Part shown: one piece after another, positions 34,496-64,000 of the stretch
How positions within the stretch are numbered: position 1 is the stretch's first letter
Layout: every line of letters begins with the position of its first letter
Assembly (NCBI GenBank): GCA_965113315.1
Contig: OZ220363.1
Strand: one strand, 5' to 3'
Origin: Podarcis vaucheri
Lineage: Eukaryota
DNA length: 64,000 nucleotides
Notes under the pieces: generated by a model
What the model was told of the DNA's origin: nothing
Databases searched by the model: none
The model's input: only the letters and a program-made list of their open reading frames with translations
Position numbers and translations under genes: made by a program

Positions 34496-35148
34496 CTATG
34501 AGAGAAAATTTCAGAGAGGGAGAGCAAGATATTTCAGTTCAATCCAAGGAAATACTCTATGTGGTAAATAGAATGAATGCAACTTCAGAAAGTCAGGACA
34601 AACTTGTCTCAGTTACTTCATCAGGATCTAAGCAGTACTATCTCTCTGGACTAGGCCACAATGTTTCTTTGACCTCCAGTCATATTTCACACCAGCATTT
34701 ATAGCTTCGATCAGCACTATGCTGGCTGGGGAGTTGTGGACCAAAACATCTGGAGAGTTCCAGACTTGTGTAGATTGGGCTAGATAGAGTGGGCAGAAAG
34801 ATCATCCAATCCATACATATGATGGATTCGGTTATGGATTCATTAGCTATTTTTAGATATGCCAAGTCTATCACATCACTCTTGTCTGCATGATGTGTTG
34901 GACATTCTGAATTAAAAATCTTTCAGTTCTTCCTCCCAAGGTACTCATGATGAAATCAAGTGAAGATTAAATTACGTGAAAATGTGACAAGGCCAGTTTT
35001 CATTAACACAACAAAGTAAAAATTAAGAAAAGGAAATCTTCCACAACTATCTATCACGATGTCTCTTTTGCCTTCTGTCCTAGCAGTAATGTGTGTTTGC
35101 AAAGGACAGATATACTTACATCGCTTTGCAAAGGACAGATATACTTAC

Positions 35149-35460
35149 ATCGCTCTGTAGTTCGTAGGCCTTCCTTGCCTGGATCACATCATTCTGGTCG
35201 GGCAGACAAGACCACTGGTGCAGATGTTGACGATAGTCCACCTCACTTACTAAAGACTGGCATTGCTTGGCTGCTTGGACAGACAGCATGTCCACCGGTA
35301 TAGTAATATTGGCTTTGGATTTGTTGTAAGCTTGCTTATACAACCGGTCATTCTGCATCTTCAATACTTTGGCAGCAAATGAAAGTTTAGGGTCCTCCTT
35401 CACTGAAGGGCATCCAATGTAGTGGCCTTTCTGTTTCTCATGAGCTTCTTTGTACTTATA
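35149..35460 (-). CDS. NEB: Nebulin super-repeat exon, 312 nt (donor site duplicated)
   Basis: [34 protein letters not shown]...[11 protein letters not shown]. Confidence 0.94.
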
Positions 35461-36587
35461 CTGAGCAGGAAAGAGAATTGGAAGTTACAGTTATTTGAAC
35501 AATTTCCAGGAGATAAGTTAGAAATTCTTGATGCTTCAGTTTTTAAGGGATTTAGCTATGGAATAGTGAGAGGGTAAATAAAACATAGTAAGGATCCCTA
35601 ATTCTGTCTTTATGAAATATTTACCTGGATTTGTTATTAGGGATGAGACGGAAATGCGGGTCATTTTGCATTTAAAGTCACACTTCCATAATTCACACTT
35701 TATGAATACTGTATACAGACATGTATACGTATTAGGAAAAATTCACATGAAAATCCTAATGAATTTTTATTAGAACTACAAAAAAACCCAAAAAACAAGT
35801 CAATGTGGAAATGTGGAGAATTGATAGTTTTGCCACCCCAATTGTATACATCCTAAGCCTAAGTAAAAAGATCTATTTTTTCAAATAACTGAATAATATA
35901 TATGTGGTTGCAAATTTTACAAAGTCACAATGTCTTTTGAAAAGCACAGCCCACTTTGTGTAATAGTGAAAAGCTACTGATGAAATTTGGCTATCCAGAG
36001 TTCAGAAACGGCAATCATATGCATTTTTACTTGGAACAAAGCCCAGTTGGGCATGGTGGAATTTACCTATCGGCGTAAAAATGCATAGGATGGTGTGCTC
36101 AGGGTGCTAAACTTGATTTGGAAACTATGCAAGATTATTTTATTATTATCTTATTAATTTATATACCACCCTATACCCAGAGGTCTCTGACTTTCCACAA
36201 CTTAAGAGAAAACTTTAAAGTGGTTGTAAAGAAAGGGGAGGGGGGGAGAAACACTTGGGTGTTTTTAACAACAGGAAGCAACAAATTTAATTATTGTAAA
36301 GTCTTTACAGTGCCAAGTATCTCCAAATTTATCACAGTTAGCTCTTTGGCATTTAAAATAATGGACTATATTAAACTTTCTGATTGTTTGAAAGAAGACA
36401 CTTTCATAAATTGTAAAAGAATGGAAAGAATGATGTCATGGACATGCAGTAGAGGAACTTGTATAAGGCTGGATAAATACGGTTTTGAGGCTGAATTATC
36501 AATTGTTCATATACTTTGACATGTGCACTCATCATATGAAAAGATATAGCCATTTGAGAAGTAAATGTTAAATAAAAGAGATTGTAC

Positions 36588-37797: not shown

Positions 37798-38565
37798 CTG
37801 CAAAGGAAACAATTGGGCTATTAACATTATGGCTGAAAATGTTTCTTCTAATTTATTAAGAAGGCTGTTGCTGTGGCTCGACCCGTCATAATACAGAACT
37901 GCTCAGCTTCCATGGCTGGCCAATCACAAGAAGTGCATACCACTAATGTGGGTATTAATAAACAGCCCTCTTTTTATCCCCTTTCAAGCTGTATATGGCA
38001 GAACAACAACAGTACTGGCCATGCGTAATACAGATTCTAGTAAATAACTCCAGCTCAGGCAATCCAGTCAAGGAAAAATAGGCTGCTTAATGCAGCTTAA
38101 ATTAATTCTTTTCACACCTAAAATTCTCTGGAATAGAAAGTAAAAGACCAATGGAAATGGACACCTCTAGAAGTGTTTAGTTCTATGCAGCTGCCACAAA
38201 TTCAGGTTTTGGTGCCTTACTTCTTCAGATCATGGTAGAGTCAATTAGCCTTGTATGCATGGATACATGTGTTGAATTGAGGTCTCAATGCCCCCTTGTG
38301 TTCTTTCTTAAAGAAGCATGATGATTGTCCAAACAATACCAAATTTATATGTTAAAAAATTCACATGTACTATGATATGTGACATGTGTTCACAGAAGTA
38401 AAACATTTATTACTTTTTAATGAAAAAATATGTAAAAATTGTGGAGACAAAATATAATTGTAGAGCCAACAGTAATAATCCACCAAATGTCATGACAGAG
38501 GAAAGAGAGTGATAGACAAGAAGCCATCATAAAAGAGATATTGCAACAATAACAAAATCACTCAC

Positions 38566-38877
38566 ATCGCTCTGTAATTCATAGGCTTTCCTGGCTTGGA
38601 TGACATCATTCTGGTCAGGCAGGCAGGTCCATTCATGCAAGTAGTGGCGGTAATCAATGTCACTAACAAGCTTCTGACAGTTCTTGGCCAGCAAGACGGA
38701 CAGCATGTCAACAGGACTGTGGATCTTCGTCTTCAATTGATGATATACTTTCTTGTACTCACGGTCACTCTGCATTTTAGCTACGTGCATAGCCAGTACC
38801 ATCTTGGGATCGTCGTTAATGTCTCGGCATCCCACATGGTGTCCAAGCTGCTTACGGTAGCCTTCCTTGTATTTGTA
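38566..38877 (-). CDS. NEB: Nebulin super-repeat exon, 312 nt
   Basis: [25 protein letters not shown]...[11 protein letters not shown]. Confidence 0.95.
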
Positions 38878-39430
38878 CTGATGGGATTTGAAAAAATACA
38901 TATACAATTAGAATCTTCACCAAAGGTATCTCAGATTCAGAGCTTTTTTTCAGCTGCAACTCACTTCTGGCACTTCTGAGGTGGGTGCCATTGTATTGGT
39001 AATGTAAATATTCAGCACATGCATAGATCTTTGAATTTCACACATGCTTCATCTGACATTTTTTTGACCAACAAGATGAAAGCTTTGGTCCTGAGAGATT
39101 AATATTCTACTTCAGAAACCTTCATCAGGATGCTGGACATTTTACTTGGAGCATATTTAAAGCAAACAGCAGCCTTCGCCAAGATGGCACCCTTCACATG
39201 TTTTGGACAACAACGTCCATCAGTCATGCTGGATGAGGCTAATGGATGTTTTAGTTCAAAACATCTGGAGGGCACTATGTTAGTGAAAGCTGGCCCATAA
39301 TGTCTTTATATCTTGCCTTGAAAATAGAACTTTAATATATTTTCTGTTTCCTGCATTTTAATTCCATTAGATACAAAAGTCCAGAGACAATGGATTTCCA
39401 AACACTATAAAATTCTATTTGCATACTTAC

Positions 39431-39535
39431 ATCACTGGCAATTTCTCTTGAGGCTCTGGCTGTTTTGATTGGGACTGCATCTGCTCTCAGGTCAATATTT
39501 TTCTTCATGTCATCCCATGATTCCCTATAAAGTTT
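39431..39535 (-). CDS. NEB: Nebulin super-repeat exon, 105 nt
   Basis: KLYRESWDDMKKNIDLRADAVPIKTARASREIASD. Confidence 0.95.
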
Positions 39536-39817
39536 CTACAATAAAAAACCAACAACATTATATTGTCATTATCCTCTTTCAGCACTTATATATTTATGAA
39601 AGCTCACTGTCCATCAGCTTTTACTTTTTTCTAATCACTCCCGTTTTTTGCAGGTAAGAGATGCCTTAAACATTACAGATTATCTACATATAAAACTATG
39701 TAAGGAAAAGTATTTAAAGTGCATGTAAGTAATTATGGATAACAAGTGCTAACACATCTGTTTTGTGGAATCTCCACAAACACAATAGATTGCCAGTTTG
39801 CATACAAACAGCTAAAT

Positions 39818-39998
39818 AAATTCCTTCCAGTAGCACCTTAGAGACCAACTAAGTTTGTCATTGGTATGAGCTTTTGTGTGCATGCACACGAAAGCTCATA
39901 CCAATGTCAAACTTAGTTGGTCTCTAAGGTGCTACTGGAAGGAATTTTTTAATTTTGTTTCGACTATGGCAGACCAACACAGTTACCTACCTATAACT
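39818..39998. mobile_element. Penelope-like element remnant forming a 130-bp palindrome
   Basis: Arms 39818-39882 and 39883-39947 with 2 mismatches; tail gactatggcagaccaacac; 12-bp direct repeat agctaaataaat at the edges. Confidence 0.75.
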
Positions 39999-40149
39999 AG
40001 CTAAATAAATGCAGGTGCAATACCCCACCTAGAATTTACATGGGTCCTTGCTGCATAATGAACTTATAACATCCAAAGCCCCCTTCATCTGAGTAACTGA
40101 AGAAGGTTGTAGAGTTGCATCGTAAGAAGAATGATAGCGATTTACTTAC

Positions 40150-40254
40150 ATTGCTCACATTGATAGCATTAGCCCTGGAAAGCATGATTTCTGGTGTGTC
40201 TGGCATCACATGGATCGTAGTTTTATCTTTATCCCACGCTTCTCTGTATTTCGC
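40150..40254 (-). CDS. NEB: Nebulin super-repeat exon, 105 nt
   Basis: [35 protein letters not shown]. Confidence 0.95.
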
Positions 40255-40335
40255 CTACAAAAATACAGAATTATCTGTTAATTCCTTCCGCAGAATAATT
40301 AAAATAATGTCACATTGCTGAAAGGAGTTACATAC

Positions 40336-40539
40336 AAGACTCAGTTGCTCAGCGTTGGTTTTGGCAAGGACAACTTCAGGCGTGTCAACGATGTGGGTAA
40401 ATTTCAAACGATCCCGAGGAGTGCGATAAACGTTGTCACTCAGAATTTCCTGCGCATATTTCACCTTCTTCACTTCTGGAGATTCATTGGGGATCCATCC
40501 AACCCCCCGGAGCCATTCCAGATCTGATTTATACACAGC
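40336..40539 (-). CDS. NEB: Nebulin super-repeat exon, 204 nt, WLRGVGW
   Basis: AVYKSDLEWLRGVGWIPNESPEV...LAKTNAEQLSL. Confidence 0.95.
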
Positions 40540-41190
40540 CTGTGAGAGAAAATGTCAGAAAGGAAGAGCAAGATATTTCAGTTCAATTCAAAAGAAATAC
40601 TCTATGTGATAAATACTGTAGAATGAATGGAACTTCAGAAAGTCAGGACAAACTTGTCTCAATTACAGCATCAGGATCTAAGCAGTACTATCTCTCTGGA
40701 CTAGGCCACAATGTTTCTTTGACATCCAGTTGTATTTCACACCAGCATTTATAACTTCAATCAGCACAATGCTGGCTGGGGAGTTGGGGGCCAAAACATC
40801 TGGAGAGTTCCAGTCTTGTGTAGATTGGGCTAGATAGAGTGGGCAGAAAGATCATCCAATCCATACATATGATGACAGCACTCCAATCGGTTATGAATTC
40901 ATTAGCTATTTTTAGATATGCCAAGTCTATCACATCACTCTTGTCTGTGTTGGACATTCTGAATTAACAATATTTCAGTTCTTCCTCCCAAGGTACTCAT
41001 GATGAAATCAAGTGAAAATGTGACAAGGCCAGATTTAATTAATAAAGCAACTACAAATGTTATCCGGGAAACAAAGTAAAAATTAAGAAAAGGAAATCTT
41101 CCACCACTATCTACCATGATGTCTCTTTTGCCTTCTGTCCCTGCAGTGCTGTGCTGTTTGTTTGGCTTTGCAGAGGACAGATATACTTAC

Positions 41191-41502
41191 ATCGCTCTGT
41201 AGTTCGTAGGCTTTCCTTGCCTGGATCACATCATTCTGGTCGGGCAGACAAGACCACTGGTGCAGATGTTGACGATAGTCCACCTCACTTACTAAAGACT
41301 GGCATAGCTTGGCTGCTTGGACAGACAGCATGTCCACTGGTATAGTAATATTGGCTTTGGATTTGTTGTAAGCTTGCTTATACAACCGGTCATTCTGCAT
41401 CTTCAATACTTTGGCAGCAAATGAAAGTTTAGGGTCCTCCTTCACTGAAGGGCATCCAACGTAGTGGCCTTTCTGTTTCTCATGAGCTTCTTTGTACTTG
41501 TA
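41191..41502 (-). CDS. NEB: Nebulin super-repeat exon, 312 nt
   Basis: YKYKEAHEKQKGHYVGCPSVKEDPK...[11 protein letters not shown]. Confidence 0.95.
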
Positions 41503-42377
41503 CTGAGCAGAAAAGAGAATTGGAAGCTTAAGTAATCTGACCAATTCCAAGGAGAAATGTTAATAGAAGTTCTTGGTATTTCAATTTTGAAGGGATTCGA
41601 CTATGGAATATTCAGGGGGTAGATAAAGCATAGTAAGGCTTCCTAATTCTGTCTTTGTATTATAAAATATTTACTTGGACTTGCTATTAAGGGATGAGAG
41701 GGAAATGCAGTTCAGTTTGCAGTTAAAGTCACACTTCCGTAGTTCACCCTTTTTGAAATGAGAACCAAAAGAAACACAACTATGCTTTCAAATTCACATT
41801 CTCCAAATTTTGCAGTGCACATATGCGGCCGAGTAGTGCATGCAGAAATGGATATACTTGTGTAAAGTATGCATATGAAAACATGCATTAGTGAAAATCA
41901 TACAAAATTTCATTAGGGAAAATGGCTTCACAAAAATATGTATATTAGGCAAAATTGCACACAAAAATTATATTAGGAGAATTTCTCGCTAAGATGCTGA
42001 TGAATTTTCATGAAAGCTTTTTTAAAAAATACAGGCCAATGTGGAAATGTAATAATTTACTATAAATGGCTGTAAAATCGGATTTAATATGTCTGCTTGA
42101 AAATATGCCTGCCATTTTGGGATTTGGGGACCAGTTAAACTAAGATTGTGAAAAATAGCTCATCTTGGCTTAACTGGCAATAGCCAATGCTGGAAGAAAA
42201 GATCTCTACAGCTTGAGAACCAATGTAAGCAAATTTCAGGATGTATCTGTGCCAACAGTCTAAAAACTTAAAATGCTAATCTAAAATCAGTTTCCTAATA
42301 TTTACCAAAATATTAGCCACCTGTTTAGCCTTATAGGAAATAACATTACAGAAATAATATACAACAGTTGACAGTAC

Positions 42378-42993: not shown

Positions 42994-43348
42994 TGTAACG
43001 GTAAAGGGACCCCTGACCATTAGGTCCAGTCGTGACCGACTCTGGGGTTGCGGCGCTCATCTCGCTTTACTGGCCAAGGGAGCCGGCGTACAGCTTCCGG
43101 GTCATGTGGCCAGCATGACTAAGCCGCTTCTGGCAAACCAGAGCAGCGCACGGAAACGCCGTTTACCTTCCCGCCAGAGTGGTACCTATTTATCTACTTG
43201 CACTTTGAAGTGCTTTCAAACTGCTAGGTTGGCAGGAGTAGGGACTGAGCAACGGGAGCTCACTCCATCACGGGGATTCGAACCGCCAACCTTCCGATCG
43301 GCAAGTCCTAGGCTCTGTGGTTTAGACCACAGCACCACCCATGTCCCT
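42994..43348 (-). mobile_element. Sauria SINE, full length
   Basis: Aligns to 2187-2540; 12-bp TSD aacatataatgt. Confidence 0.9.
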
Positions 43349-47967: not shown

Positions 47968-48171
47968 CTTGTTCATCGTCTCAGCGTTATGTTTTGCCAA
48001 CTCCATCTCCAAAGAATCTGTGACGCTGGTAAACTTGAACTTATCAGGTGGCTGTCGGTACTTCCTGTCACTTAGGATTTCTCCTGCTCTCTTTACTTTC
48101 TCAACTTCCAAAGAGCCAGAAGGAATCCAACCAACACCTTTCAGCCATTCCATATCTGATTTGTAAAGCAC
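47968..48171 (-). CDS. NEB: Nebulin super-repeat exon, 204 nt, WLKGVGW
   Basis: [23 protein letters not shown]...[11 protein letters not shown]. Confidence 0.95.
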
Positions 48172-48258
48172 CTGGAATATGAACACAGATTATCCTTGCA
48201 TTCAGAGAAACTATCAACTTCACACATAACTACTATTGCAGGGGAATATTTCTGGGTT

Positions 48259-48521
48259 CAGTGGTGGAGCTTCATGCTCCAGCAGCGGGGGGCAGAGAGC
48301 AGGCAGGGGCAGGGCTGGCGCACGTCCCAGGGACGTGGCGCGCCACCTGTAGGGGCATGGTGCGTGTCCTGGGGGCGTGGCGTGCGTCCTGGGGGCATGG
48401 TGTGCCACCTGTAGGGGTGTGGCACCCAGCACGGGCAGGGGGGCAGCCGCGATGGCACCCTGCTGGGATTGCGCTGCCGTGGGTGGTGTGCTCCCCCCAC
48501 ACGCCTCTTCCTCCGCCAGTG
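48259..48521. mobile_element. GC-rich hAT-type MITE with internal short repeats
   Basis: 8-bp TSD tctgggtt; imperfect TIRs cagtggtggag / ctccgccagtg. Confidence 0.82.
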
Positions 48522-49378
48522 TCTGGGTTATAAACATAGAGATGAAACATTAAATATGTGTATACTAAAGGACCAATACATCACAGTTACAACCACTATA
48601 ACTCCTGCTTTTGCAGCTACATATTCATTTAGCCCAAACTTGATGATCCTATGCAGTCTGATTCACACTCCCTTGTTCATTGCTTGGCCTCTTGTCACAT
48701 GTTTAATTACTTGGGAGCAAGCCCAATTGAACAAAGTGCTACTTCTGAGTAAATATCTATAGAACTGTGCCATTGATGTCTCATTCCCGACATTGCTTAG
48801 AATGCTAATGGAATCTGCCTCTACTGAATTTCACCTTGGATTTTGGTGTTTCACGTTATCGTAACGGAACTAAAAGTATCTGGTGATATATTTCCAAAAC
48901 GTTTGCAAGGTATCTTACAAATAATTATTTTTAAATTGTTCATTAAAAAAACTAGCTTATTTTTTCAGAATTGCACAATTTTGCTACTGCATTTAAAAAT
49001 ATACATGATATAAATATTGTATATGTTTCTAAAAACTGTTCTTTTAACTTAAAAAAAATTCCCAATTAAAAACATACCTTTTGTTTTATGTGTCATTGGG
49101 GTGGTTTGCTGGTTTTTGTTTTAGGTTTACTTTTAAAATTATGCACAAAAGCCTTTACTGACAATACAAAACCCGGAGTTTGTTCCAGGGTTCAAACGGA
49201 AGGCAACCCAAGGAATAGTGAACAATAACAGAGAGGAATGGATGGAATCCATTCATCTCCACTTATAACACATTGATTTCCAGGTATATATGAACTGTCT
49301 CCATAAAAAAGCATATCTGGATGATTTGGGGAAAGACACAAATTCACTGGCTGTGTTTATTCTGCATAGCTTACTCAC

Positions 49379-49690
49379 ATCACTCTGGAGATCATAGGCC
49401 TTTCTAGCTTGGATGACGTCATTCTGATCTGGAAGGCAGGTCCACTGGTGCAGATAATGACGGTAATCAATATCACTGACCAACTTCTGGCAATTCTTAG
49501 CGTGCAACACTTCCAGCATGTCCACAGGGCTAATATACTTAGTCTTCCATTTCTCAAAGTCCTTCTTATACTCCCTCTCACTCTGCATTTTGGCTACATT
49601 CATAGAATGCACAAGTTTCGGGTCATCTTGCACACTGCGTGCTCCAATATGGTGGCCAAGCTGCTTGCGATAGCCTTCTTTGTATTTGTA
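49379..49690 (-). CDS. NEB: Nebulin super-repeat exon, 312 nt
   Basis: [25 protein letters not shown]...[11 protein letters not shown]. Confidence 0.95.
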
Positions 49691-50927
49691 CTGAAATAGA
49701 TATACATGTGTAAACCATCTACCCATAAGATTATTCATCAGATACCTGCATTGGAAAATCCCACATTCTGAGAGGATTGTGACAGTATTTTTCTCATCTA
49801 GATAGCATCTTTTGTTCCTATGCTTGTCCCTTCATCTTCCTATTTCATCGTACATATTTTCTAATAATCTTTAAAGATTTTGTTCCTTTGGCAAGGTAAG
49901 CTTTTCTTCTTCTTCAATCCTTTATTATTCATGGATAGGAATGAAAAAGCTCTTTAGGTAGTTCCGATGTCTTGGGTAATGCTTAAGCACCTCCCGCCAT
50001 CTTTCCAGTTTCAAAACTACTTTGCTATGTGGCGATCAAGTGGGGGCTTTCATGAACCACGAGTCCATGGTCCCTTGGAGATGCAGAGCTTGTTCACAGT
50101 TCCTTGAATCTCAGCTCTAAATTAATCCCAATATATTTTCCCCCTGGATTTCATCTCTTTTTTTTTTCTTTTCTTTTTTAATCTATTATGCAGCTGCCTT
50201 CAAATATTTTTCCTTTCTTTTCCAGTAAGTTTTAAAGAAACATAGTAAACAAAGCAAACAAACAAGGAAATACATCTGGCTAAGTCCATTTCACCACACT
50301 GTGAAAATGTCCGGTGGGTTGATAACAGTTCCAAAATGGGGCAAAAAGCCCAAGTTTCTGCTTGCATTATTCTTTTCTTCCCATGAATGTTTACAGCAAG
50401 TGATCTTATTAATATTCCACACAGTAAACATTTCCTGCTAATAACAGCTGAGCTGTAGTTAATACATAATTAACTTCGACTTTGAGTTTTCTTTTAACTT
50501 GCCCTTTCACTAACCATGAAATAATTGTTTTAGGGTTTCATTGTAGCTTGTATCACATTAAAACCCTGTGAAACATTACTGTCTTCCTATATTGTGCCTA
50601 AGACTCTCCTCGTGCCACTCTGCTTTCTATTTACTACATCTCCTCAGGCACCTTTTTCAATACTCTGTTCTTAATGCTACTAAAGAACCCTGTTCTTTTG
50701 TCCCCATAATTCACATAATAATTTAGTCTCTTAGCAAATGAAACCAAAATCGTGGAAGGAAATGTAGCTTCTCTCTAATACTGCCTTTCATGGATGCCTA
50801 AAACATCCACCACAGTCACACATACTGTAGAATTGAGACCATAGTTTCAATTCTTTTTTTTATTTAGAGCAAGAAATGTTTTCCCCTTAAAAAAAAATGC
50901 TATACATAGAACATATTGGGTACACAC

Positions 50928-51035
50928 ATCACTGGCAATATTTCTGGAAGCCTTGGCAGCTTGAATTGGGATAGCATCCAAACGTAAGTCATAGCCATCC
51001 TTCTTTGCCTCCTCCATAGCAAGTCTGTATAATTT
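50928..51035 (-). CDS. NEB: Nebulin super-repeat exon, 108 nt
   Basis: [36 protein letters not shown]; donor gtgtgt. Confidence 0.94.
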
Positions 51036-51320
51036 CTGTAAGGAAGAATAACATGTTTACTTCATTGTTATCCATGCCTGCATCCTTCATGTCCACACAC
51101 ATATATAATTTTACATAACTGACTGAGGTGCAACAACTTGACTGTGCTGCACTTAAACCAAAACCTCCAGGGCAACTCTAGCCTACTGAGCCTCAACAAA
51201 CCCTAACCATCTGGTGACTATGGGGCCCACATCCCTTGCAACAACCATGGACGTTGGCTGAAATATTTGCAGTCTCCCTTGGTATGGAGGAACTCCTTTG
51301 TTTATCCAAATGGCACTCAC

Positions 51321-51425
51321 CTGACTATAGTTTAGCTTGTTGAATTTTGACAGCATGATTTCAGGTGTATCAGGCATCACGTGGATCGTAACCTTGTCTT
51401 TATCCCAAGCTTCCGTATACAAACG
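51321..51425 (-). CDS. NEB: Nebulin super-repeat exon, 105 nt
   Basis: [35 protein letters not shown]. Confidence 0.95.
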
Positions 51426-52135
51426 CTGTGGAAGAACATAAGCACAAGAGACAGTGGTTATAAGGACAATCGTTCAGTAATCCTAGGGCTTTTTTGTTTT
51501 TTTAAGTGAGGGCCTCCTATGAAAATTGCATTAAAATAGCCTGCAGAGGCAGAACTCCGCTACCTCGAACTGTGGTGCTGTAGGTAGAGTGTTGGACTAA
51601 GACTGGGTGGAGTTCAAATCTTCAATCAGCCGTGCAGCTGACTAGGTGATCTTAGACCACTAACGATCTCTCAGCTTATATCTACCTCACAGGTTCCATA
51701 TGAGAATAAATGTATTATTTGTTCATATTTAAGTCTACCTGATGCAAATGGCGCAATGTTCTTCCAATTCATGAACTTTGCAATAAAATAACTGACAAAA
51801 ATGTCTAAGATACATGAAGTGAAATGTTTTGCTTTCAGAGAAATGTACAGTGGTCACAACCATGTTACTTGTTGACTACCCACCTATATGCCAATACAGC
51901 TTTAAAAGAAATGTTAACTGTATGTCATATTTCAAATATGTAATGTAAACTCTGACCAAAGCTGGTTACTTTTAAATCCCCTTAAGTTAAAAGGCAAAAG
52001 TTAAACAAGGTACAAAAAGCTCCCCAACGTAAATCAGTGAAAATGGAAAAACGTTGGATCACTAGTGCCCTGTAATTAGACCCTACAACATTTGTACCAC
52101 AGTACTAGTTTCTCAACTGCCCGGCTCAGATTCAC

Positions 52136-52339
52136 CTTGTTCATTGTTTCTGCATTATGCTTGGCCAACTCCATTTCAAGAGAATCTGTCACACTGGTGA
52201 ATTTGAATTTGTCTGGTGGCTGACGATACTGCTTTTCACTTAGGATCTCTCCAGCCTTCTTGGCTTTTTCCACATCCAGTGAACCAATAGGGACCCAGCC
52301 AATGCCTTTCATCCACTCAAGGTCTGCTTTGTAGGCATT
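52136..52339 (-). CDS. NEB: Nebulin super-repeat exon, 204 nt, WMKGIGW
   Basis: [23 protein letters not shown]...[11 protein letters not shown]. Confidence 0.95.
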
Positions 52340-52886
52340 CTGTGAATAAGAAATTCAAAGAATCATTAATAAAAGCAAAAGCTATAGAGGACTCTTGCTT
52401 GGGGGAGGGGGTGCCGTCTGATTAGGATGACAGAAAGAGAGAGAAAAAATATGTAACACACACACATACACACACACCATAATGAGGTGCTGGTACTCAT
52501 GCTCGAATAAAAGTGCCACAAGTGTCAGGATAACATGGCTGCTATGGGCATGGGGAGGATGTTGGGATTTCAGTCTCACATCACTGATGTAACATGATAG
52601 TCATGTTGACATTCCTGTACTGTTGTGTACTGTTATGCCTGAGAACGGAAGTGAGCATCTGTAACTTCCGCTGATTGTTCTCTCTCTGCTCTCGCAACAG
52701 AGACGTGTGTGAGGCACTCAGCTCACACTAGCTATGCTTTGTTGTTTTAATTCGCTGTAAATAATACAAGAAATTCAGAGTGCTACATATCTGACAGTCT
52801 GCTTCCTGCTGATACTCTGGTGCAGCCCCAGGAGGGGTTTTTCTACCTTCTCCTCACAGGGGGTCTGCCGATAGGAAGGGGTCAGT

Positions 52887-53214
52887 CAGGGGTCAGCAAA
52901 CTTTTTCAGCAGGGGGCTGGTCCACTGTCCCTCAGACCTTGCGGGGGGGGGGGGTTGGACTATATTTTGGGGAAAAAATATGAACGAATTCCTATGCCCC
53001 ACAAACAACCCAGAGATGTAATTTAAATAAAAGCACACATTCTACTTATGTAAAAATACCAGGCAGGCCCCACAAATAACCGAGAGATCTATTTTAAACA
53101 AAAGGACACATTCTACTCATGTAAAAACACACTGATTCCTGGACCATCCACGGGCCGGATTTAGAAGGTGATTGGGCCGGATCCAGCCGCCAGGCCTTAG
53201 TTTGCCTACCCATG
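52887..53214. mobile_element. hAT-type MITE (reverse-orientation relative of 3844-4163)
   Basis: TSD gggtcagt/gtgtcagt (7/8 match); internal sequence is the reverse complement of 3844-4163. Confidence 0.85.
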
Positions 53215-53485
53215 GTGTCAGTCCTCTGTACCAGTGACCACTGCCACCATGTTTGCTTTTTGTTACTTCACATTGTGCAACTGCAACACTTGAAAGTTGT
53301 CTGGAATTAGAGGTGGGTTAGGAGAAAAGAGCCAAGATTGATGGAGCAGGCTGGGGGAAGGAAGGAATCAGTTCTACACTCCCTTGTATCCCACCATTTG
53401 ACACACACACACACACCCCTCCCCCCCCCCCCGATTTTATGCCTTATATTATGTTTAGTTGTGCCCAAACATAAATAGTACTCAC

Positions 53486-53797
53486 ATCACTCTGGAGATC
53501 ATAGGCCTTTCTAGCCTGGATGACGTCATTCTGATCTGGAAGGCAGGTCCACTGGTGCAGATAATGACGGTAATCGATATCACTGACCAACTTCTGGCAA
53601 TTCTTAGCGTGCAACACTTCCAGCATGTCCACAGGGCTAATATACTTAGTCTTCCATTTCTCAAAGTCCTTCTTATACTCCCTCTCACTCTGCATTTTGG
53701 CTACATTCATAGAATGCACAAGTTTCGGGTCATCTTGCACACTGCGTGCTCCAATATGGTGGCCAAGCTGCTTGCGATAGCCTTCTTTGTATTTGTA
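53486..53797 (-). CDS. NEB: Nebulin super-repeat exon, 312 nt
   Basis: Protein identical to exon 49379-49690. Confidence 0.95.
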
Positions 53798-54196
53798 CTG
53801 AAATAGATATACACGTGTAAACCGTCTACCCATAAGATTATTCATCAGATAGCTGCATTGGAAAATCCCACATTCTGAGAGGATTGTGACAGTATTTTCC
53901 CCATTTAGATAGCATCTTTCTTCCTTATCTTTTTGCCACTTCATTTTCCTAATTCCTCATACAGATTCTCTAATAATCTTTAAAGATTTGTTTCCTTTAG
54001 GAAGGTATTTTTTATTATTATTCATGAATCTATTAAAAATGGACCAGTCATTCTGTTTTGTGTTGTTTTCAGAAGGGGCAGCTTTAAAGAAAAACCACAG
54101 AAAAAAAGAAAACAAATGCGAGCATTAGCCAAATCTAAGTGTAAGCTTGAATGACAAGCCTGGCTTGGATGACAGGCCAAAGTTCCATGCAATTCC

Positions 54197-54555
54197 TGGC
54201 ACTGTGGTCTAAACCACTTAGTCTAGAGCTTGCCAATCAGAAGGTTGACAATTCAAATCCCCGCGACGGGGTGAGCTCCCGTTGCTCTGTCCCAGCTCCT
54301 GCCAACCTAGCAGTTCGAAAGCATGTCAAAGTGCAAGTAGATAAATAGGTACCGCTCCAGCGGGAAGGCAAACAGCGTTTCCGTGCGCTGCTCTGGTTTT
54401 TCCAGAAGTGGCTTAGTCATGCCAGCCATATGACTCGGAAAAACTGTCTGCGGACAAACATCAGCTGCCTCGATCAGTAAAGCGAGATGAGCACCACAAC
54501 CCCAGAGTCATTTGCGACTGGACTTAACGGTCAGCAGTCCTTTACCTTTACCTTT
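54197..54555 (+). mobile_element. Sauria SINE, older copy
   Basis: Reverse complement of 2187-2540 type; ends cctttacctttacctttt. Confidence 0.85.
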
Positions 54556-54985
54556 TAGCTGTCAATAGGTGACTGCTACATACTAGGAATCAAGTGTAAC
54601 GATTTTATTTTAAGGATTCAGGCATGCTTTGGATTCCACCATCACCAGTTTGGGCACTTGTGAAAACTTAACATATTCAATGAATATTCCTATTAATGAT
54701 GATTGACTATATCAATAACATGGGGGGGGGAGCTATTTAGTCATCTAAATCTATTCAAAGCATCACAAGATTAGCTGTATCAGCTGTGATAAATGAGGGA
54801 TTCACATATCACTGCCCTTTCAACAATTCAAACCAGAAAACAAAAACCCACCTATTCACTATCCACTGAGCGATAGAAAAATGATGGGTTTTTTTGAAAA
54901 AAAAAAGTAATAAGGGAAGTGGGTTAGGGAGATGCAATGCCTATTACATGACAGCATCTGACAACTCATGAACAGAACTACTTAC

Positions 54986-55093
54986 TTCACTTGCAATGTC
55001 TCTTGAAGCTTTAGCAGCCTTGATTGGAATTGCATCTACACGAAGATCATAACCCTTTCTCCTGGCCTCTTCCAATGAAAGTTTGTATAATTT
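54986..55093 (-). CDS. NEB: Nebulin super-repeat exon, 108 nt
   Basis: [36 protein letters not shown]. Confidence 0.95.
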
Positions 55094-55191
55094 CTAAAAG
55101 AATGGCAATGATTGGTTTAATGTTTAAAAACAGAGCACTTGTTATTATTCTAAATTGGTTTTCTACCAACGATTTTGAAGACATTACTTAC

Positions 55192-55296
55192 ATCACTATA
55201 GTTGATCTTGTTCTGCTGTGACAATATAATTTCAGGAGTATCTGGCATAATGTGAATGGTGGTTTTATCCTTGTTCCATGCATCTATATACTTGCG
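55192..55296 (-). CDS. NEB: Nebulin super-repeat exon, 105 nt
   Basis: [35 protein letters not shown]. Confidence 0.95.
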
Positions 55297-55735
55297 CTGA
55301 AAAAATAGTAAATAGTAAGGAAAAAAAGTAAATAAATTATTTGATAAAGGTAGCAGCTGCCAAAAATGGTAATTCTTTCATTCATTTGTTTGTTTCTAAA
55401 ATCTCTTAAGAAGCCCTTCACAATCATAAAACTGTTGAAGTTTCCAAATTGCCTCCAAGGGCAGCCCCACATAGAGAACATTGCCGTAATCCAATCTGGA
55501 AGTTACCAGAGCATGGAGTACTGTGGCCAAGTCTTCTCTGTAGTTGGGCCGTAGTTGGCATATCAGCTGTAGATGTAAATGAACTCCTAGGCACTGAGGC
55601 TACTTGGGCCTCCACTGACAGAGATGGGTCCAGAACATCACAATGCTTACACCTGCTCCTTCCAGAGGAACTTTGGATACATAAGACCCCCATCTTTTCC
55701 TGGTTCCACTTCAATTTACTGATCAGCATCTAGTC

Positions 55736-55871
55736 CAGGCATAGGCAAACTCATCCCTCCAGATGTTTTGCGACAACAACTCCCATCATCCCTAGCTAGC
55801 AAGACCAGTGGTCAGGGATGATGGGAATTGTAGTCTCAAAACATCTGGAGGGCCGAGTTTGCCTATGCCTG
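55736..55871. mobile_element. hAT-type MITE
   Basis: 17-bp perfect TIRs caggcataggcaaactc / gagtttgcctatgcctg; perfect 8-bp TSD atctagtc. Confidence 0.92.
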
Positions 55872-56375
55872 ATCTAGTCCATTACCATCTCCAAGCACCA
55901 GGCTAGCACTTCAGTTTCCTCTCGTGCTTCAGATGGAACAGAGAGCAATAGCTTGGTGCCCTCCACATATTATTGGTATTTCACTCCAAATCTCCTTTTG
56001 AGAGGGGTCCCAACTGTTTGCAGATATATATTAATTAACAAGACGGGGGAAATGCTCATGGTACTAAACAAAGCCCATCATATCCACGTTCTGGAAATGG
56101 CTCTGATTCAACCAGTATGAAAATGGTTGCTGAAAGAGTATGAAAATAAGAATGAATGGAATGTGCCTTCTTAGAACAAAAACGAAGCTCTTAATTAGTT
56201 AATTAGGGTCAGATAACAATCATAGAGATAAATAGTTATAATGATAAAATCACTAGGCAAATTCTCAAAGTGATCAGAGCCTGCATATCCCCAGTCACAG
56301 CATTGCTAAACCAGCAAGATTTCTTTATATATTTGTTCATATGAGTTTTAAGGAAGGGGCATGAATGAAACTCAC

Positions 56376-56579
56376 ATGGTCCATAACTTCAGAATTATGC
56401 TTTGCCAAAGCCATAGGCATAGAATCAATGGGACTTGTGAATTTGAATTTGTCAGGATGCTGTCTGTAGATGTAGTCACTCAAGATCTGAGAGGCTCTCT
56501 TGTTCTTCTCAGCTTCCAAGGAACCACTTGGAGTCCAGCCAATGCCCTTTAGCCATTCAAGATCTGCTTTATACATATT
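56376..56579 (-). CDS. NEB: Nebulin super-repeat exon, 204 nt, WLKGIGW
   Basis: [23 protein letters not shown]...LAKHNSEVMDH. Confidence 0.95.
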
Positions 56580-56787
56580 CTGTTTGAAAAGAAACAAGCA
56601 GGGAGGACAATAGATCCATGAAAACCTTCCATTGCAATTGAGGATTTTTGCCTTCATAAATTATAATCCACATCAACTAAAGAGACTATTGTTACACTGT
56701 CAATTTGTGTCAGCACAGATTAAACAAGCAATAACTTTTCAACTTTTTTTTTACTCTTTTAATATATAGTACGCATGCTATCTAAAC

Positions 56788-57090
56788 AGAATGCAGCTAT
56801 TAGGCTGATGAGTGGGGCAGCCCAATCGAACCACCTGCCATCAATCCTGAAGGCACTTCACTGGCTGCCGGTGAGCTGCTGGGCCCAATTCAAAGTGTTT
56901 GTATTAACATACAAAGCCCAAATGGCTTGAGACCCAAGTACCTAAAGGAGCGCTTCCCTGATTTCAACAATCTCAGGTCCTATAACTGGCAGGGGATTCC
57001 CTGCTGTTGCTGCCTTCGGTGGGTGCTAAACTGTTGGTGATGCCCGGTCTCAGGGCTTCCTTGGTAGTGGTTCCCCCTTTGTGGAGCAAA
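56788..57090 (+). mobile_element. L2 LINE ORF2 fragment
   Basis: Degenerate NAAIRLMSG...ILKALHWLPV...QFKVFVLTYKA; truncated at 59686 in block D. Confidence 0.7.
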
Positions 57091-57296
57091 CCTCAGCCAA
57101 AAGCCAAATGTACATCCCACAGAAAGGTGTTCTGGACCTCTGGAGCAGTAATCAATCTTTGTTTCGAGATCCCGTCGCAATTATAATTGCCTGATGTTTA
57201 GAGAATGGCTTTCTTCACACAGAAAATGGTGGTTCAAATCCGCTGGCCCTGGGATAATCTAATGTTTAAAACGCTTTTTCTTATAAAGATACTCAC

Positions 57297-57608
57297 ATCG
57301 CTCTGAAGTTCATATGTTTTCCTGGCATGCACAACATCATTCTGATCTGGCAGGCACGTCCACTGGTGCAAATAATGACGGTAATCGACATCACTGACCA
57401 GTTTCTGGCAATTCTTAGCGTGCAACACTTCCAGCATATCCACAGGGGTGGTATATTTGGTCTTCCATTTCTCAAAGTCTTTCTTATACTCCCTCTCACT
57501 CTGCATTTTGGCTACATTCATAGAATGCACAAGTTTTGGGTCGTCTTGCACACTGCGTGCTCCAATGTGGTGGCCAACTTGCTTGCGGTAGCCTTCTTTG
57601 TATTTGTA
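57297..57608 (-). CDS. NEB: Nebulin super-repeat exon, 312 nt (chimeric)
   Basis: [25 protein letters not shown]...[13 protein letters not shown]. Confidence 0.95.
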
Positions 57609-58159
57609 CTGGAGGGGAAAGAAATATATGTGCATATTATAAATCATCTACCCAGAAGACTGCTTGTTGTCAGGCAGTTTCTCAGTTTCTGTACTTATAC
57701 AGAATATGATTCATGAATCTATTAAAAAACGGACCTGTCATTCTGTGTTTTTTATTTTTTCAGAAAGGGACAGCTTTAAAGAAAAACAACATTTAAAAAA
57801 CATGAGAGCATGAACCAAACCTAGGTGTAGGCTTCCTGGTATATCTGGGTTGGAAGACAGGTAAAGATTCCTATACCCGCTAGCTTACAACATGTGGGTG
57901 CCACATACTGGGAACTTAGTGAAACTATTTTATTGGAAGGACTGAGGGTCATTTTGGATTCTGCCATCAACATCTGCAGGCACCTGCGAAACCTTAATGT
58001 ATTCAATGATTATTCCTATTTATGATAACTGACAATATCGGTAACACAGGGGGACTATTTAGCCTATTTGGGACTATTTACTATTAAGGGAAGTGGTTTG
58101 GGAAAATGCAATGCCTATTACATAACAGCATCTGACAACTCATGAACAGAACTACTTAC

Positions 58160-58267
58160 CTCGCTTGCAATATCTCTTGAAGCTTTAGCGGCCTTGATTG
58201 GAATTGCATCTACACGAAGATCATAACCCTTTCTCCTGGCCTCTTCCAACGAAAGTTTGTATAATTT
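58160..58267 (-). CDS. NEB: Nebulin super-repeat exon, 108 nt
   Basis: [36 protein letters not shown] (same protein as 54986-55093). Confidence 0.95.
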
Positions 58268-58368
58268 CTAAAAGAATGGCAAAGATTGATTATGTGTTTA
58301 AAAACAGGGCACTTGTATTTCTTCTAAACTGGTTCTCTACCAATTTTTTTATTTTTATTTTTACTTAC

Positions 58369-58473
58369 ATCGCTATAGTTGATCTTGTTCTGCTGCGACA
58401 GTATAATTTCAGGAGTATCTGGCATGATATGAATGGTGGTTTTATCCTTGTTCCATGCATCTATATACTTGCG
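58369..58473 (-). CDS. NEB: Nebulin super-repeat exon, 105 nt
   Basis: [35 protein letters not shown] (same protein as 55192-55296). Confidence 0.95.
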
Positions 58474-58596
58474 CTGAAAACAACAACCAGTAAATAAATT
58501 ATTTGACGAAGGCAGCAGCAACCAAGAATGGCAATTTGTTTCCTTCTAAGATTTATCAGAAGTCCTTCAACATAATGTCATAGTCATAAAACAGAT

Positions 58597-58730
58597 AAAA
58601 CAGTTGAAGTTTCCAATTTGTCCTCATGCCCACACAGAGCACATCACAATAATCCAGACTGGAAGTTACCAGAGCATGGAGTATTGGGGTCAGGTCTTCC
58701 ACCATCTCCAAGCACCAGTCAATCTCCTCT
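58597..58730 (-). mobile_element. L2 LINE ORF2 fragment (paralogue at ~55428-55520)
   Basis: LTPILHALVTSSLDYCDVL...WKLQL resembles the L2 HALVTSRLDYCN motif. Confidence 0.7.
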
Positions 58731-59204
58731 GATGCTTCGGATGGAACAGAAAGAGATTGATGGGTACATTCCACATATTAGTGGTATTTCACTTCAAATC
58801 TTCTGGTGACAGGTCTGAAGATTTCAGATAGATATTAAATAACATTGGGGGGGGGGGACGACACTCATGTTCTCAAACAATGCCCTCCCATAACTACTTT
58901 CTGGAAATGGCCCTGATCCAACATTTATGAAAACCAACATTTTGCTACAAAATGGTTGTTGAAAGAGTATGAAAATAAGAATGAATGGAATGTGCCTCCT
59001 TAGCACAAAAATGAAACTCTTAATTAGTTAATTAGGGTCAGATAACAATCATAGAGATAAATAGTTATAATGATAAAATCACTAGGCAAATTCTCAAAGT
59101 GATCAGAGCCTGCATATCCCCAGTCACAGCATTGCTAAACCAGCAAGATTTCTTTATATATTTGTTCATATGAGTTTTAAGGAAGGGGCATGAATGAAAC
59201 TCAC

Positions 59205-59408
59205 ATGGTCCATAACTTCAGAATTATGCTTTGCCAAAGCCATAGGCATAGAGTCAATGGGACTTGTGAATTTGAATTTGTCAGGATGCTGTCTGTAGAT
59301 GTAGTCACTTAAGATCTGGGAGGCTCTCTTATTCTTCTCAGCTTCCAAGGAACCACTTGGAGTCCAGCCAATGCCCTTTAGCCATTCAAGATCTGCTTTA
59401 TACATATT
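59205..59408 (-). CDS. NEB: Nebulin super-repeat exon, 204 nt, WLKGIGW
   Basis: Same protein as 56376-56579. Confidence 0.95.
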
Positions 59409-60000
59409 CTGTTTGAAAAGAAACAAGCAGGGAGGACAATAGTTCCATGAAAACCTTCCATTACAAATGAGCATTTTTGCCATCACAAATTATAATCCAC
59501 ATCAACTATAGAGACTGTTGTTACACTGTCAATTTATGTCAGCACAGATTAAACAAAAGAAACAAACTTTTTCAACTTTTTTTTTACTCTTTTAATATAT
59601 AGTATGCATGCTATCTAAATAGAATGCAGCCATTAGGCTGATGAGCAGGGCAGCCCAATCGAACCATCTGCCATCAATCCTGAAGGGGATGAGTTAGGAC
59701 CACTTTCTTGCTCACCATTAGGTGGGACCTAGGCTTTGGGCTATGACTTGGCATACCCCTTGGAACAGGCAGGTCCCTCAAGGTTGAAGTTAGCTTCCCA
59801 CTCTTCTGACTTATGAATAATATGTTCCCTCATTTGATCCATCACTCCAGTCTCACCTTTTTGTTCTAAGATCCAGGCACAATTATCACTATTTGCTGTT
59901 TAGAGACAGGCTTTTCCCCCATAAGGAATTGTGAATAAAATCCACCAACCCTGGGATAGTCTCATGCTTAAAAGCCTTTAAGAAAAAATAAGATACTTAC

Positions 60001-60312
60001 ATCACTCTGAAGTTCATATGTTTTCCTGGCATGCACAACATCATTCTGATCTGGCAGGCATGTCCATTGGTGCAGATAATGACGGTAATCGACATCGCTG
60101 ACCAGCTTCTGACAATTCTTTGCCAGTAAGACTCCAAGCATATCCACAGGGCTGGTATACCTGGTCTTCGATTTTTCGAAGTCTTTCTTATATTCTCTTT
60201 CGCTCTGCATCTTGGCTACATTCATAGAATGCACAAGTTTCGGGTCATCCTGTATGCTGCGTGCTCCAACATGGTGGCCAAGCTGCTTGCGATATCCAAC
60301 TTTGTACTTGTA
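60001..60312 (-). CDS. NEB: Nebulin super-repeat exon, 312 nt
   Basis: [25 protein letters not shown]...[13 protein letters not shown]. Confidence 0.95.
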
Positions 60313-61102
60313 CTGTGTGAAAAATAAAATTATTTTCACTAACTTCTCATTCTAATTACATTAAGAGGTGCTCGTGTATTTATAAAGGCCTTAGCAAATG
60401 ATCATCCCTCCAAAACTTGATTTCTCAGGACATCCTAACTTATATAATAAGGCGTTTCAGCTCAAATGGTTGGACATGACCAACAGTCATTTAAGAGTTT
60501 ATGGAATCAAAGCAATATAGTGTGATTGTACTACTGTAAAACATTAAGCAGAATTTAACCATCCTTCTGTGTTAAGATTTGCATGTCTGAACCAAAATGG
60601 CAATTCTACCTCGGAAGGTCCTGGGTACATCTGCAGGACCCAAAGTGGACTATTCCAGGGGAGTGTCGGGGACAGGCTTGGATGTGCAGGAACCTAAGCT
60701 GTCATTGTTATCCTGATACACACAAAAAAGGGCCTCTTAGCTACACCAGCCCTGGAGCTAGTAAAGTTAATAGCTTTCCATTATCTGCAACTGGGGGGCG
60801 GGAAGGTAACAAACAAAAGGATGAAAAAGCTGCCAACCCATCCCACTGAGCCAATAAGGCTATGGGTGTGGCAGATCTCCTCCCAGGTATATAAGATTAC
60901 CCCACCCATAAGCAAAATATTTATTAAACCATTAATACAAATAATTTAACATGGAGTTCCTTCTACCAATAGGCCTCCCTTTTTGCCAGCACAGCAGCAC
61001 TTCTGCCTCTTCCTGTTTCTCCTTCAGACTGCCTCAGAGCCAGAGGGAGCTTTGAATTGCTCCCTAATAGGACTTATTTTTTATTTATAAAGGGAATTTA
61101 TC

Positions 61103-61172
61103 ATATCTATATCTATATCTATATCTATATCTATATCTATATCTATATCTATATCTATATCTATATCTATCT
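61103..61172 (+). repeat. (ATATCT)n microsatellite
   Basis: Direct reading. Confidence 0.95.
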
Positions 61173-61581
61173 ATCTATATATATGAATGAGAACGCTGAT
61201 TCAAGATAGCATTCCAATTTATAAAAGAGAAATAAAAGAGAAGCTGAAACCAGGCTTTGATTTACACTCATTTTATATGTGTTCAAAACCTGACACTTTT
61301 CAAATCACAATTAATTCATTTCAGCTATTATAATGATTATACGAAGCACTGCATTTATTTTTGGGAAACTTCGAAACTATTCCCCCCCCCCTTAAGGTTT
61401 AGTTGATAAATATAAAAAAATAAATAAAAGAAAATCAGTGTGTGCGCTTATGTGTAACTAAATGTATATACATATTCACACACATCCCTTAGAAAGTTCA
61501 CAATGTTAACAATGTGCCAAATCAAAGATTTAATAAGCAGAATTGCCACTTTGCTGTTAACCAGCAGAATGAAATACTTAC

Positions 61582-61689
61582 TTCACTGGCAATATCTCGA
61601 GATGCTTTTGCAGCCTTGATTGGTATGGCATCGAGTGGAAGGTCATAGCCTTTCCTTATCAATTCTTCAAATCCTAGCTTGTAGAGTTT
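61582..61689 (-). CDS. NEB: Nebulin super-repeat exon, 108 nt
   Basis: [36 protein letters not shown]. Confidence 0.95.
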
Positions 61690-61788
61690 CTAATGAGAGA
61701 ACCATAAGAAAGTTAATCACTGTGGAAGCCCAGCAAGAAAACAGACAGCTCAAAAACACCCTCTTGTGCTATCCAGCATCAAACTTAC

Positions 61789-61893
61789 ATCGCTCGTGTT
61801 AATTAAGTTGGCTCTGGACAGGATAATTTCGGGAGTGTCAGGCATGATGTGGATCTGAGTCTTGTCCTTATCCCATGCTTCTCTATAAAGTTT
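61789..61893 (-). CDS. NEB: Nebulin super-repeat exon, 105 nt
   Basis: [35 protein letters not shown]. Confidence 0.95.
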
Positions 61894-62150
61894 CTAGAAA
61901 GAATGGAAAGAGAGTGAATCATCATCATCATCATCATGTGCCAGTAAGAATAAATATCAAATTCAGCACAGTACAAAAGTACATCAAGCCAATGTGAAAT
62001 GTTGGGCAGGCCATTGTCCATGTGGAAGGCGTTCCGTGCCACGTTGTGCAAAACCTTGTGAAAGAGACTGTGCAGCACCTTGTGCTAGCAGGTGCAGCGC
62101 AAGGTCTTGTGCTCCCATGCACCTTGATACATTGCTGAATACCTGGTGCA

Positions 62151-62331
62151 CATAGGAGCTAGGGCTGAGGTCCCTTCGTCCGTCCCCCCAATAAAATATT
62201 TGAGGGGGTTAGGGCCCCGAAAGATGATGGGCATTGTCATTCAAATGGTGTGTGCGCACTGTGCCATGTGATTATCAGGGGCTTACCTCCCCCCCCCAAA
62301 AAAAAATATTTTATCCAAATTGGCACCCCTG
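62151..62331. mobile_element. hAT-type MITE
   Basis: Perfect 8-bp TSD ctggtgca; catagg...cccctg ends. Confidence 0.75.
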
Positions 62332-62836
62332 CTGGTGCAAGAGACTGTAAAATGCCTTGTGGGGAGAATTGGAGGAGGAGGGTTGCTCAGTACTTAAACC
62401 AATGTAATTATATCCTCCTTCACAGGATTACAGGCTGGGGGGGGCATCATTTTCCTAAATAAATCCCTAGGCCCAGAAACTGAATTTCCCTTTTTATACC
62501 AAATTCATCAAACTGAAAACAAAAATAAAAATGCACTTATCAAATTTGCTACAGAATCCTATGCATGTTCACCTGAAGCAAATTCCAAGCAAGAAAGGAA
62601 TGCACTCTTTAACTAATTAAGGCTGCAGTCCTGAACATGCTCCCTAGAGAGCCCTGTTAAATACAGTGGGGGCTTGCCTCTGAGTAAACATGCATTGGAT
62701 GTGCTGTAAAGCAGTTAACTATGCTATAGGGCATGACTCATTCACCCACTCCTCCCCACTACCATTCATAACCATTATTCCCGCTGCTGACACCTGCTCC
62801 TCAAGAGCAGCACATCCTTGTGTTGAGAACACTTAC

Positions 62837-63040
62837 ATCGCTCCTATGCTTGGCATTTTCCTTTGCCAAAACCACCTCCATTGAATCAGGGATACTTGTG
62901 AATTTAACGGTGTCTGGAGGCTGGCGATATTTCTTTTCACTCAGAATCTCAGAAGCCTTCTTGTTCTTTTCCGATTCTAGAGATCCGTATGAGTTCCATC
63001 CAATGCCTTTCAGCCACTCAAGATCTGTTTTGTATGCATT
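62837..63040 (-). CDS. NEB: Nebulin super-repeat exon, 204 nt, WLKGIGW
   Basis: [23 protein letters not shown]...[11 protein letters not shown]. Confidence 0.95.
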
Positions 63041-63577
63041 CTAGCAAGGAAGAAAACATATATGAGATCCATTTGATATTGTAAATACCACTGAAGAGGA
63101 TTTTAACTTTTGGTCCTATTCCTATTCCTCCGTCATATGTTGATTATGGGTCCTTGCCTTAGGTATGTCTATCATTTGGCTTGATTGTTATTTAAATAAA
63201 GCATACAAAGTTTTGCAAAGTTTGAAGACCAAGTACCCGTAGTTTGGCCAAGAATATGGCCAAAAATGTACATAGTGAGAAGACTAGCGCAGGAGGGGAG
63301 ACAAGGGAAACATTGTTTTTAAGGCACCTTAAATCTCAGAAAAGAAGTTTGACAAAAACAAATTAAGAGATTAAGAAAAGATTGGGAACATACTCCAGAA
63401 ACAGCAAAAACGAGGATGAACAAGAGCAATAAGAAGTCAGTGAGAATGAAGGATGTAAGCAGGGACCTGCCAGCATTAGGGTAGGTAAGAGACAGAAGGA
63501 GACTTGAAATCTGCCTTCACAAACAAATATCATTTCTGATCCCCCATAGCAAGATATGGTTTATAAATACGACTTAC

Positions 63578-63889
63578 ATCGCTTTGTAATTCATATACTT
63601 TCTTAGCATGGATGACATCATTTTGGTCCGGGAGACATGTCCATTGGTGCAGAAAATGACGGTAATCGATATCGCTGACCAGTTTCTGACAATTCTTAGC
63701 GTGCAAGACCTCCAGCATATCCACAGGGCTGATATACTTGGTCTTCCATTTCTCAAAGTCTTTCTTGTATTCCCTCTCACTCTGTATCTTGGCTACATTC
63801 ATAGAATGCACAAGTTTTGGGTCGTCCTGTATGCTGCGTGCTCCAATGTGATGCCCCTGTTGCTTGCGGTAACCTTCTTTGTACTTGTA
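63578..63889 (-). CDS. NEB: Nebulin super-repeat exon, 312 nt
   Basis: [25 protein letters not shown]...[12 protein letters not shown]. Confidence 0.95.
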
Positions 63890-64000
63890 CTGAAATCACA
63901 AACAAAGTTTGTTGCAAAGACAAGAACGACAAAATCCGGAATCGTTAGCAGATCTATCCCAATGGAGGCGCCATGTCAGAACTGTTTGCAAATGTGTCCT

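Follow-up and report, generated by a model that had tools for sequence, protein, structure and literature searches.

How does a gene encoding a protein of long repeats gain or lose one whole repeat without disturbing its reading frame? The question is raised by the nebulin gene of the lizard Podarcis vaucheri, whose central and 3′ part lies on the minus strand of the window, the whole stretch of DNA analysed (64,000 nt of contig OZ220363.1). Exons of 312 nt recur here, and each of those from Z to W is followed by exons of 204, 105 and 108 nt; the four together make 729 nt, or 243 amino acids, one super-repeat. In transcription order the long exons are Z (63578), X (60001), M (57297), Y (53486), W (49379) and V (46114), followed by U (41191), T (38566), S (35149), R (32680) and Q (29357). 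The shorter exons that follow X, M and Y form units D, C and B. Exon M is a hybrid, with a 5′ part like that of Y and a 3′ part like that of X, and it stands at the seam of an in-frame tandem duplication of one super-repeat.

The mosaic nature of exon M is evident at the 48 informative sites, those where X and Y are unlike and M agrees with one or the other. Over exon nt 6–246 M is Y-type at 28 of 35 sites, and over nt 258–303 it is X-type at all 13. The corresponding maximum chi-square is 25.0, a value reached in none of 20 000 permutations. Six of 24 triplets among Z, X, M, Y and W give p < 0.01, all six containing both M and X, while the other 18 have p ≥ 0.15. The flanks change partner in the same manner (comparisons over 110–400 nt upstream; z from 200 shuffles each). 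The intron upstream of M matches that of Y with z = 45, compared with z = 2.2 for X; downstream it matches that of X with z = 24, compared with z = 0.4 for Y. An earlier note on this DNA had described just this arrangement, Y-like in the 5′ part and upstream intron and X-like in the 3′ part and downstream intron, and it is borne out by the sites and flanks alike. The intron motifs that the note cited are present near 54020/57710 and 57248/59950. The copies thus lie head to tail, with a hybrid junction between them and exchanged flanks. The peptides EKWKTKY and MLEVLHAK are shared by Z and W as well, and are therefore not specific to Y.

The switch falls in a short interval, with no single best position. 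Three positions tie at seven conflicts (57408–57401, 57393–57389 and 57363–57351), compared with 20 or 28 conflicts if there is no switch, and sites polarized by exon Z favor the two later positions. The interval 57390–57410 proposed in the earlier note covers two of the three and misses 57363–57351. Two other placements were considered and rejected. A seam at a repeat element, of the kind proposed for the human triplicate region, is discounted because the seam lies within the exon and the repeats found by self-BLAST lie elsewhere. A seam in an intron far from the exon is discounted because the flanks confine it to the exon itself or to roughly the final 20 nt of the upstream intron. Third positions differ at 11/82 between M and Y in the 5′ part and at 2/22 between M and X in the 3′ part, while those of the C and D exons differ at 13/139. 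The M–Y and C/D distances are statistically alike (Fisher p = 0.38), and exon M is therefore about as old as the duplication.

The duplicated units are C and D. They encode identical proteins, as had been noted for their 204-, 105- and 108-nt exons, with 14 silent differences in 417 nt (4/204, 5/105 and 5/108). Over 1598 aligned intron columns the two diverge by 15.0%. A false duplication in the assembly is rejected on the basis of this intron divergence, together with a repeat insertion specific to the C copy. Words of 54900–60400 are found in 14 sequencing runs labeled as DNA or unlabeled (seven organism labels) at fractions of 0.44–0.91; since a genome with one D, or low coverage, could give a value of about half, these fractions do not bear on copy number. 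No RNA run was listed as containing them.

Several features assign the gene to nebulin. All eight exons in 53486–60312 have AG/GT ends, open frames and the lengths given in the earlier note. When four exons were compared with Pfam PF00880 two scored above the cut-off, one slightly below it (19.7 against 20.1) and one had no match; PF00880 matches and SDxxYK repeats are both features of nebulin super-repeats. The 243-amino acid unit has one WLKGIGW-type motif, is collinear with named nebulins, and is 86–91% identical to the orthologous units of the gecko. Among 412 proteins the best match is the gecko, at 89% for exon M and 90% for the 204-nt exon of D, followed by snakes at 79–86%; the homolog searches yielded nothing from a nearer lizard. 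An exact look-up of the peptides of these two exons returned no match, and Rfam gave no matches within 48000–64000 of the window. The features of the locus are collected in Table 1.

Table 1. Features around the hybrid exon, in order of transcription (positions in the window).
Feature	Position	Strand	Remarks
Exon X, 312 nt, 104 amino acids; donor of the 3′ end of M	60001..60312	−	M–X 2 differences in exon nt 251–312
Unit D 204-nt exon (WLKGIGW module)	59205..59408	−	PF00880 26.1 bits
Unit D 105-nt exon	58369..58473	−	
Unit D 108-nt exon	58160..58267	−	
Intron upstream of M, homologous to 54016–54176 upstream of Y	57705..57861	−	blastn 77%; z = 45
Exon M, hybrid 312-nt exon (Y-like 5′, X-like 3′)	57297..57608	−	PF00880 66.9 bits
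Duplication-seam interval, three equally parsimonious positions	57351..57408	−	X = Y over exon nt 221–245
Intron downstream of M, homologous to 59860–60000 downstream of X	57158..57296	−	self-BLAST; z = 24
Unit C 204-nt exon, differing from D at 4 silent sites	56376..56579	−	
Unit C 105-nt exon, differing from D at 5 silent sites	55192..55296	−	
Unit C 108-nt exon, differing from D at 5 silent sites	54986..55093	−	
Interspersed repeat in the C copy, not in the D copy; away from the seam	54197..54553	−	alignment gap
Exon Y, 312 nt, from which the 5′ part of M derives; unit B directly next, without B′	53486..53797	−	
Tract common to Y and to W with its upstream intron	53480..54030	−	71–87% distally, 94–98% near acceptor, 310/312 in exon
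Unit B, exons 52136–52339, 51321–51425 and 50928–51035	50928..52339	−	gecko B 89%, gecko B′ 81%
Exon W (49379–49690) with ~245 nt of its upstream intron; probable partner of Y in conversion	49373..49935	−	

Has the duplication lengthened the protein? Between exons X and W the window has units D, D and B. In the same interval Gekko kuhli and Erythrolamprus have D, B′ and B, while Ahaetulla and Pseudonaja have D, B′, B and B, as does a viper read by eye from Table S2 of PMC7754682. One D unit is thus present in all five other squamates, and the duplication giving C and D is therefore lineage-specific; none of the five has C and D as distinct ancient units, in keeping with the earlier proposal. 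Gene models of Varanus skip the interval. B′ is kept after D in all five, and none was found in the window, where the best match to the gecko 105-nt B′ exon on the whole minus strand is 74%. Since B′ is missing, the interval stays at three units, the same number as in the gecko and Erythrolamprus, and there is no net gain.

This bears directly on the earlier note's interpretation, that a single unequal crossover added a super-repeat and lengthened the thin-filament ruler; on this version the loss of B′ would be a later and unrelated event. The super-repeat count does set thin-filament length in fast muscle, where nebulin acts as a ruler (text available from PMC7673738), each super-repeat corresponding to ~38.5 nm (text available from PMC7754682), and a hybrid exon with its flanks fits one crossover. 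The claim of net lengthening nevertheless fails on the X-to-W count, and we regard this version of events as distinctly unlikely. Over the longer interval from Z to Q the window has ten units compared with nine in the gecko and Erythrolamprus, but this excess comes from a separate duplication at 38263–41757. That second duplication comprises a long exon, a unit and a long exon, such that U-u-T copies S-u-R (32392–35706), with unit t lying between copy and source; its long exons differ at 5/312 and 16/312.

What could have made exons X and Y similar enough to recombine? A clue is provided by the next pair along the gene. Exons Y and W differ at only 2 of 312 nt, and 2 of 104 third positions, while small exons compared between units C and B differ at about half of their third positions (34/68, 20/35 and 19/36). 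The identity of Y and W extends some 230–245 nt into the acceptor-side intron, falling stepwise from 98% to ~70%, a decay to be expected of nested conversion tracts that differ in age. A tract of near identity between old paralogs that includes the silent sites is expected of gene conversion, and it is found in Y and W. The Y/W tract begins at a common 12-nt motif near 54025/49930, where the match between the M and Y introns stops.

The same tendency is seen across species, in comparisons of predicted proteins. In a first set, the long exon has its nearest neighbor within its own species in 29 of 37 rows, while the small exons have theirs at the same position in 25 of 34 (the Empidonax D small exons are left out, the model being incomplete). 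A wider set, of 69 rows from 14 species, has one protein per species, 12 of 120 listed plus the gecko and the window, without birds or amphibians; M, C and internal array copies are left out. Here the nearest neighbor of the long exon is from the same species in 34 rows and the same position in 26, with five others and four ties, while for the small exons it is the same position in all 69. In the long exon paralogs are more alike than orthologs (85.4 versus 81.7%), and in the small exons less so (66–71 versus 78–84%). The species-wise signal is located in residues 27–78 of the long exon, and over residues 53–78 paralogs reach 88–89% compared with 75–76% for orthologs. A tree of the long exon joins the ten squamate rows (94/91), while that of the small exons groups by unit. 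In gecko nebulin, residues 3005–3108 and 3487–3590, encoded by non-adjacent long exons, differ at a single residue, which suggests conversion across two units.

From these comparisons it is likely that the 312-nt exon is homogenized by repeated gene conversion, and that conversion supplies the homology for gains and losses of whole repeats. Could the likeness of long exons within a species arise from selection on the protein, or from errors of assembly or polishing, instead? The identity of Y and W is known from the assembly alone, and the cross-species comparisons are made at the protein level on automatic gene models, both of which leave some room for this. However, selection on the protein would not account for the near identity of the silent sites (2/104) or the stepwise decay into the intron, and the pattern recurs in independent assemblies (eagle and Empidonax at 99–100%, and snakes). 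Nor would a mis-join produce C and D introns 15% apart with a repeat insertion, or private substitutions in M. Such an explanation is very improbable.

We therefore favor, with a probability of roughly 70%, a reading in which exon M stands at the seam of a tandem copy of a whole super-repeat, probably made by out-of-register homologous recombination between neighboring 312-nt exons that repeated conversion probably keeps alike, the gain being offset by the absence of B′. Conversion would homogenize the middle of the long exon, probably because this is the sole long homology left between the old units. Mispairing at the 312-nt exon would then shift the register by exactly 729 coding nt, with the result that the products are in frame and in seven-module phase. 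The order was more probably loss of B′ first and gain of D second, as two unequal crossovers. Two features of M point this way: its acceptor-side intron is weakly W-like (z = 6.7), and it has ARSVQ like gecko Q′ and W, rather than ARSIQ like gecko X and P. If all the exons are spliced in, the net effect of the X-to-W interval on filament length would be nil.

The product expected by the earlier note, an unequal crossover adding 243 amino acids, thus stands as to the hybrid, the tandem arrangement and the frame, but a single reciprocal crossover is not the only route to it. Sister chromatids mispaired by one unit could have undergone one long gene conversion, or double crossover, in which a copy of D replaced B′, creating M and a hybrid Y at once with the length constant. 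This has the attraction of predicting the order X-D-M-D-Y-B, and an unchanged three units, in one event. It requires a tract of ~3–4 kb across non-homologous introns, however, and the 5′ part of M would then be native and P-type; the Q′/W-type residue and weakly W-like acceptor intron would call for an extra, earlier conversion. We consider this route improbable, though less so than the single lengthening crossover.

Several observations weigh against the reading that we favor. Seven of the 35 sites in the 5′ part of M are X-type, and of the 11 sites at which M agrees with neither X nor Y (57300–57588), seven match exon Z. Later patchy exchange therefore blurs the record; five of those seven Z-like sites lie in exon nt 21–72, and may reflect a further exchange, either between M and Z or between X and Y. 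The last 13 residues of the long exon generally follow position (85% among orthologs versus 76% among paralogs), so that an X-type tail is in itself no proof of crossover, and it is the flanks that place the seam. The divergence of the C and D introns is uneven, at 70/753 (9%) around the 204-nt exon and 18–25% in the other four blocks. The long exon groups by species in part (29/37 and 34/69), the long-exon tree is poorly resolved, with 5 of 32 inner branches well supported, and the cross-species comparisons use predicted proteins, not DNA. The loss-first order is weakly supported, by one residue and one weak intron match. Lastly, the window's second duplication has intronic ends, and thus not every gain ends in a 312-nt exon. 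Separately, the low divergence around the 204-nt exons (55884–56853 and 58701–59686) suggests later conversion between C and D.

Interspersed repeats are also present in the window. One of 350 nt, presumably a Sauria SINE-like (short interspersed nuclear element) sequence, has four copies, at 54197–54553, 2186–2530, 21837–22195 and 42995–43348. Other repeat pairs are 3844–4163/52887–53214 and 13586–13695/55755–55861.

How does this compare with what is known of nebulin? Whole super-repeats have been duplicated independently across vertebrates, with 21–31 repeats in 53 species and a central expansion (Gohlke et al., text available from PMC7754682), and the lizard event shares the step of seven modules and 243 amino acids, the lineage-specific origin and the central location. 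That work, in the text available, counts super-repeats and leaves their junctions unplaced; in the lizard a coding exon contains the seam, the gain is offset by a loss, and homogenization affects one class of exon. The words 'lizard' and 'conversion' are absent from its main text. The restriction to whole-repeat steps has been ascribed to selection against partial repeats (text available from PMC7754682 and PMC7673738). In the triplicate region of human NEB, too, whole super-repeats change in copy number by non-allelic homologous recombination, proposed to occur between intronic Alu or LINE (long interspersed nuclear element) sequences (text available from PMC9109913). The human block comprises two super-repeats (eight exons), with its homology proposed to lie in those intronic elements, whereas that of the lizard is one super-repeat, with a seam free of interspersed repeats.

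Within the literature searched, with most subscription journals outside its scope, no paper was found that treats lizard nebulin or conversion between nebulin exons. A study of nebulin duplications by Bjorklund et al. in 2010 is the likeliest to have mapped junctions, and may anticipate part of these findings. There are parallels in other systems. Lepore-type hybrid genes arise by unequal crossing over, and exon M resembles them as a hybrid sequence at the crossover. The repeats of spider silk undergo intragenic concerted evolution, and like them the long-exon paralogs of nebulin are closer within than between species. Nebulin differs from both, in that homogenization is limited to the middle of one class of exon while the other three exons keep their positional identity across amniotes. 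Thus duplication of super-repeats is already known, and homogenization limited to the 312-nt exon is apparently new, not having been found in the literature searched. It is this exon-limited homogenization, and the cancellation of a gain by a loss, that are of greater interest than the seam itself, which is a well-preserved example of a known process.

How general might this be? Copies of the D unit are numerous elsewhere, with three to four in turtles, at least five in a partial Gopherus model, four in the golden eagle and three in Empidonax. Within the D arrays of Emydura and Gopherus, internal long exons have a body like that of the downstream exon and an X-type tail, as judged by eye. Given the 15% divergence of the lizard introns, a shared origin of the lizard duplication and the turtle arrays is unlikely. 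We suggest tentatively, as something rather less than an even chance, that the 312-nt exon is a self-maintaining substrate for recombination across amniotes, where conversion keeps the middle alike and crossovers add or remove exactly one super-repeat.

The consequences would be both practical and biological. Trees or orthology drawn from the long exon are distorted by conversion, and counts of duplications mislead when taken alone, as a hidden loss of B′ cancels the gain of D. Whole-repeat steps would acquire a mutational explanation as well from an exon able to maintain its own homology, which would also predict where the junctions lie. If the suggestion is correct, it would provide a mutational cause for the integer steps in nebulin length and for the central hotspot, where D has been amplified separately in this lizard, in turtles and in birds, and the lizard gene would preserve the trace of a loss and then of a gain that compensated for it, bringing the ruler back to its former length.

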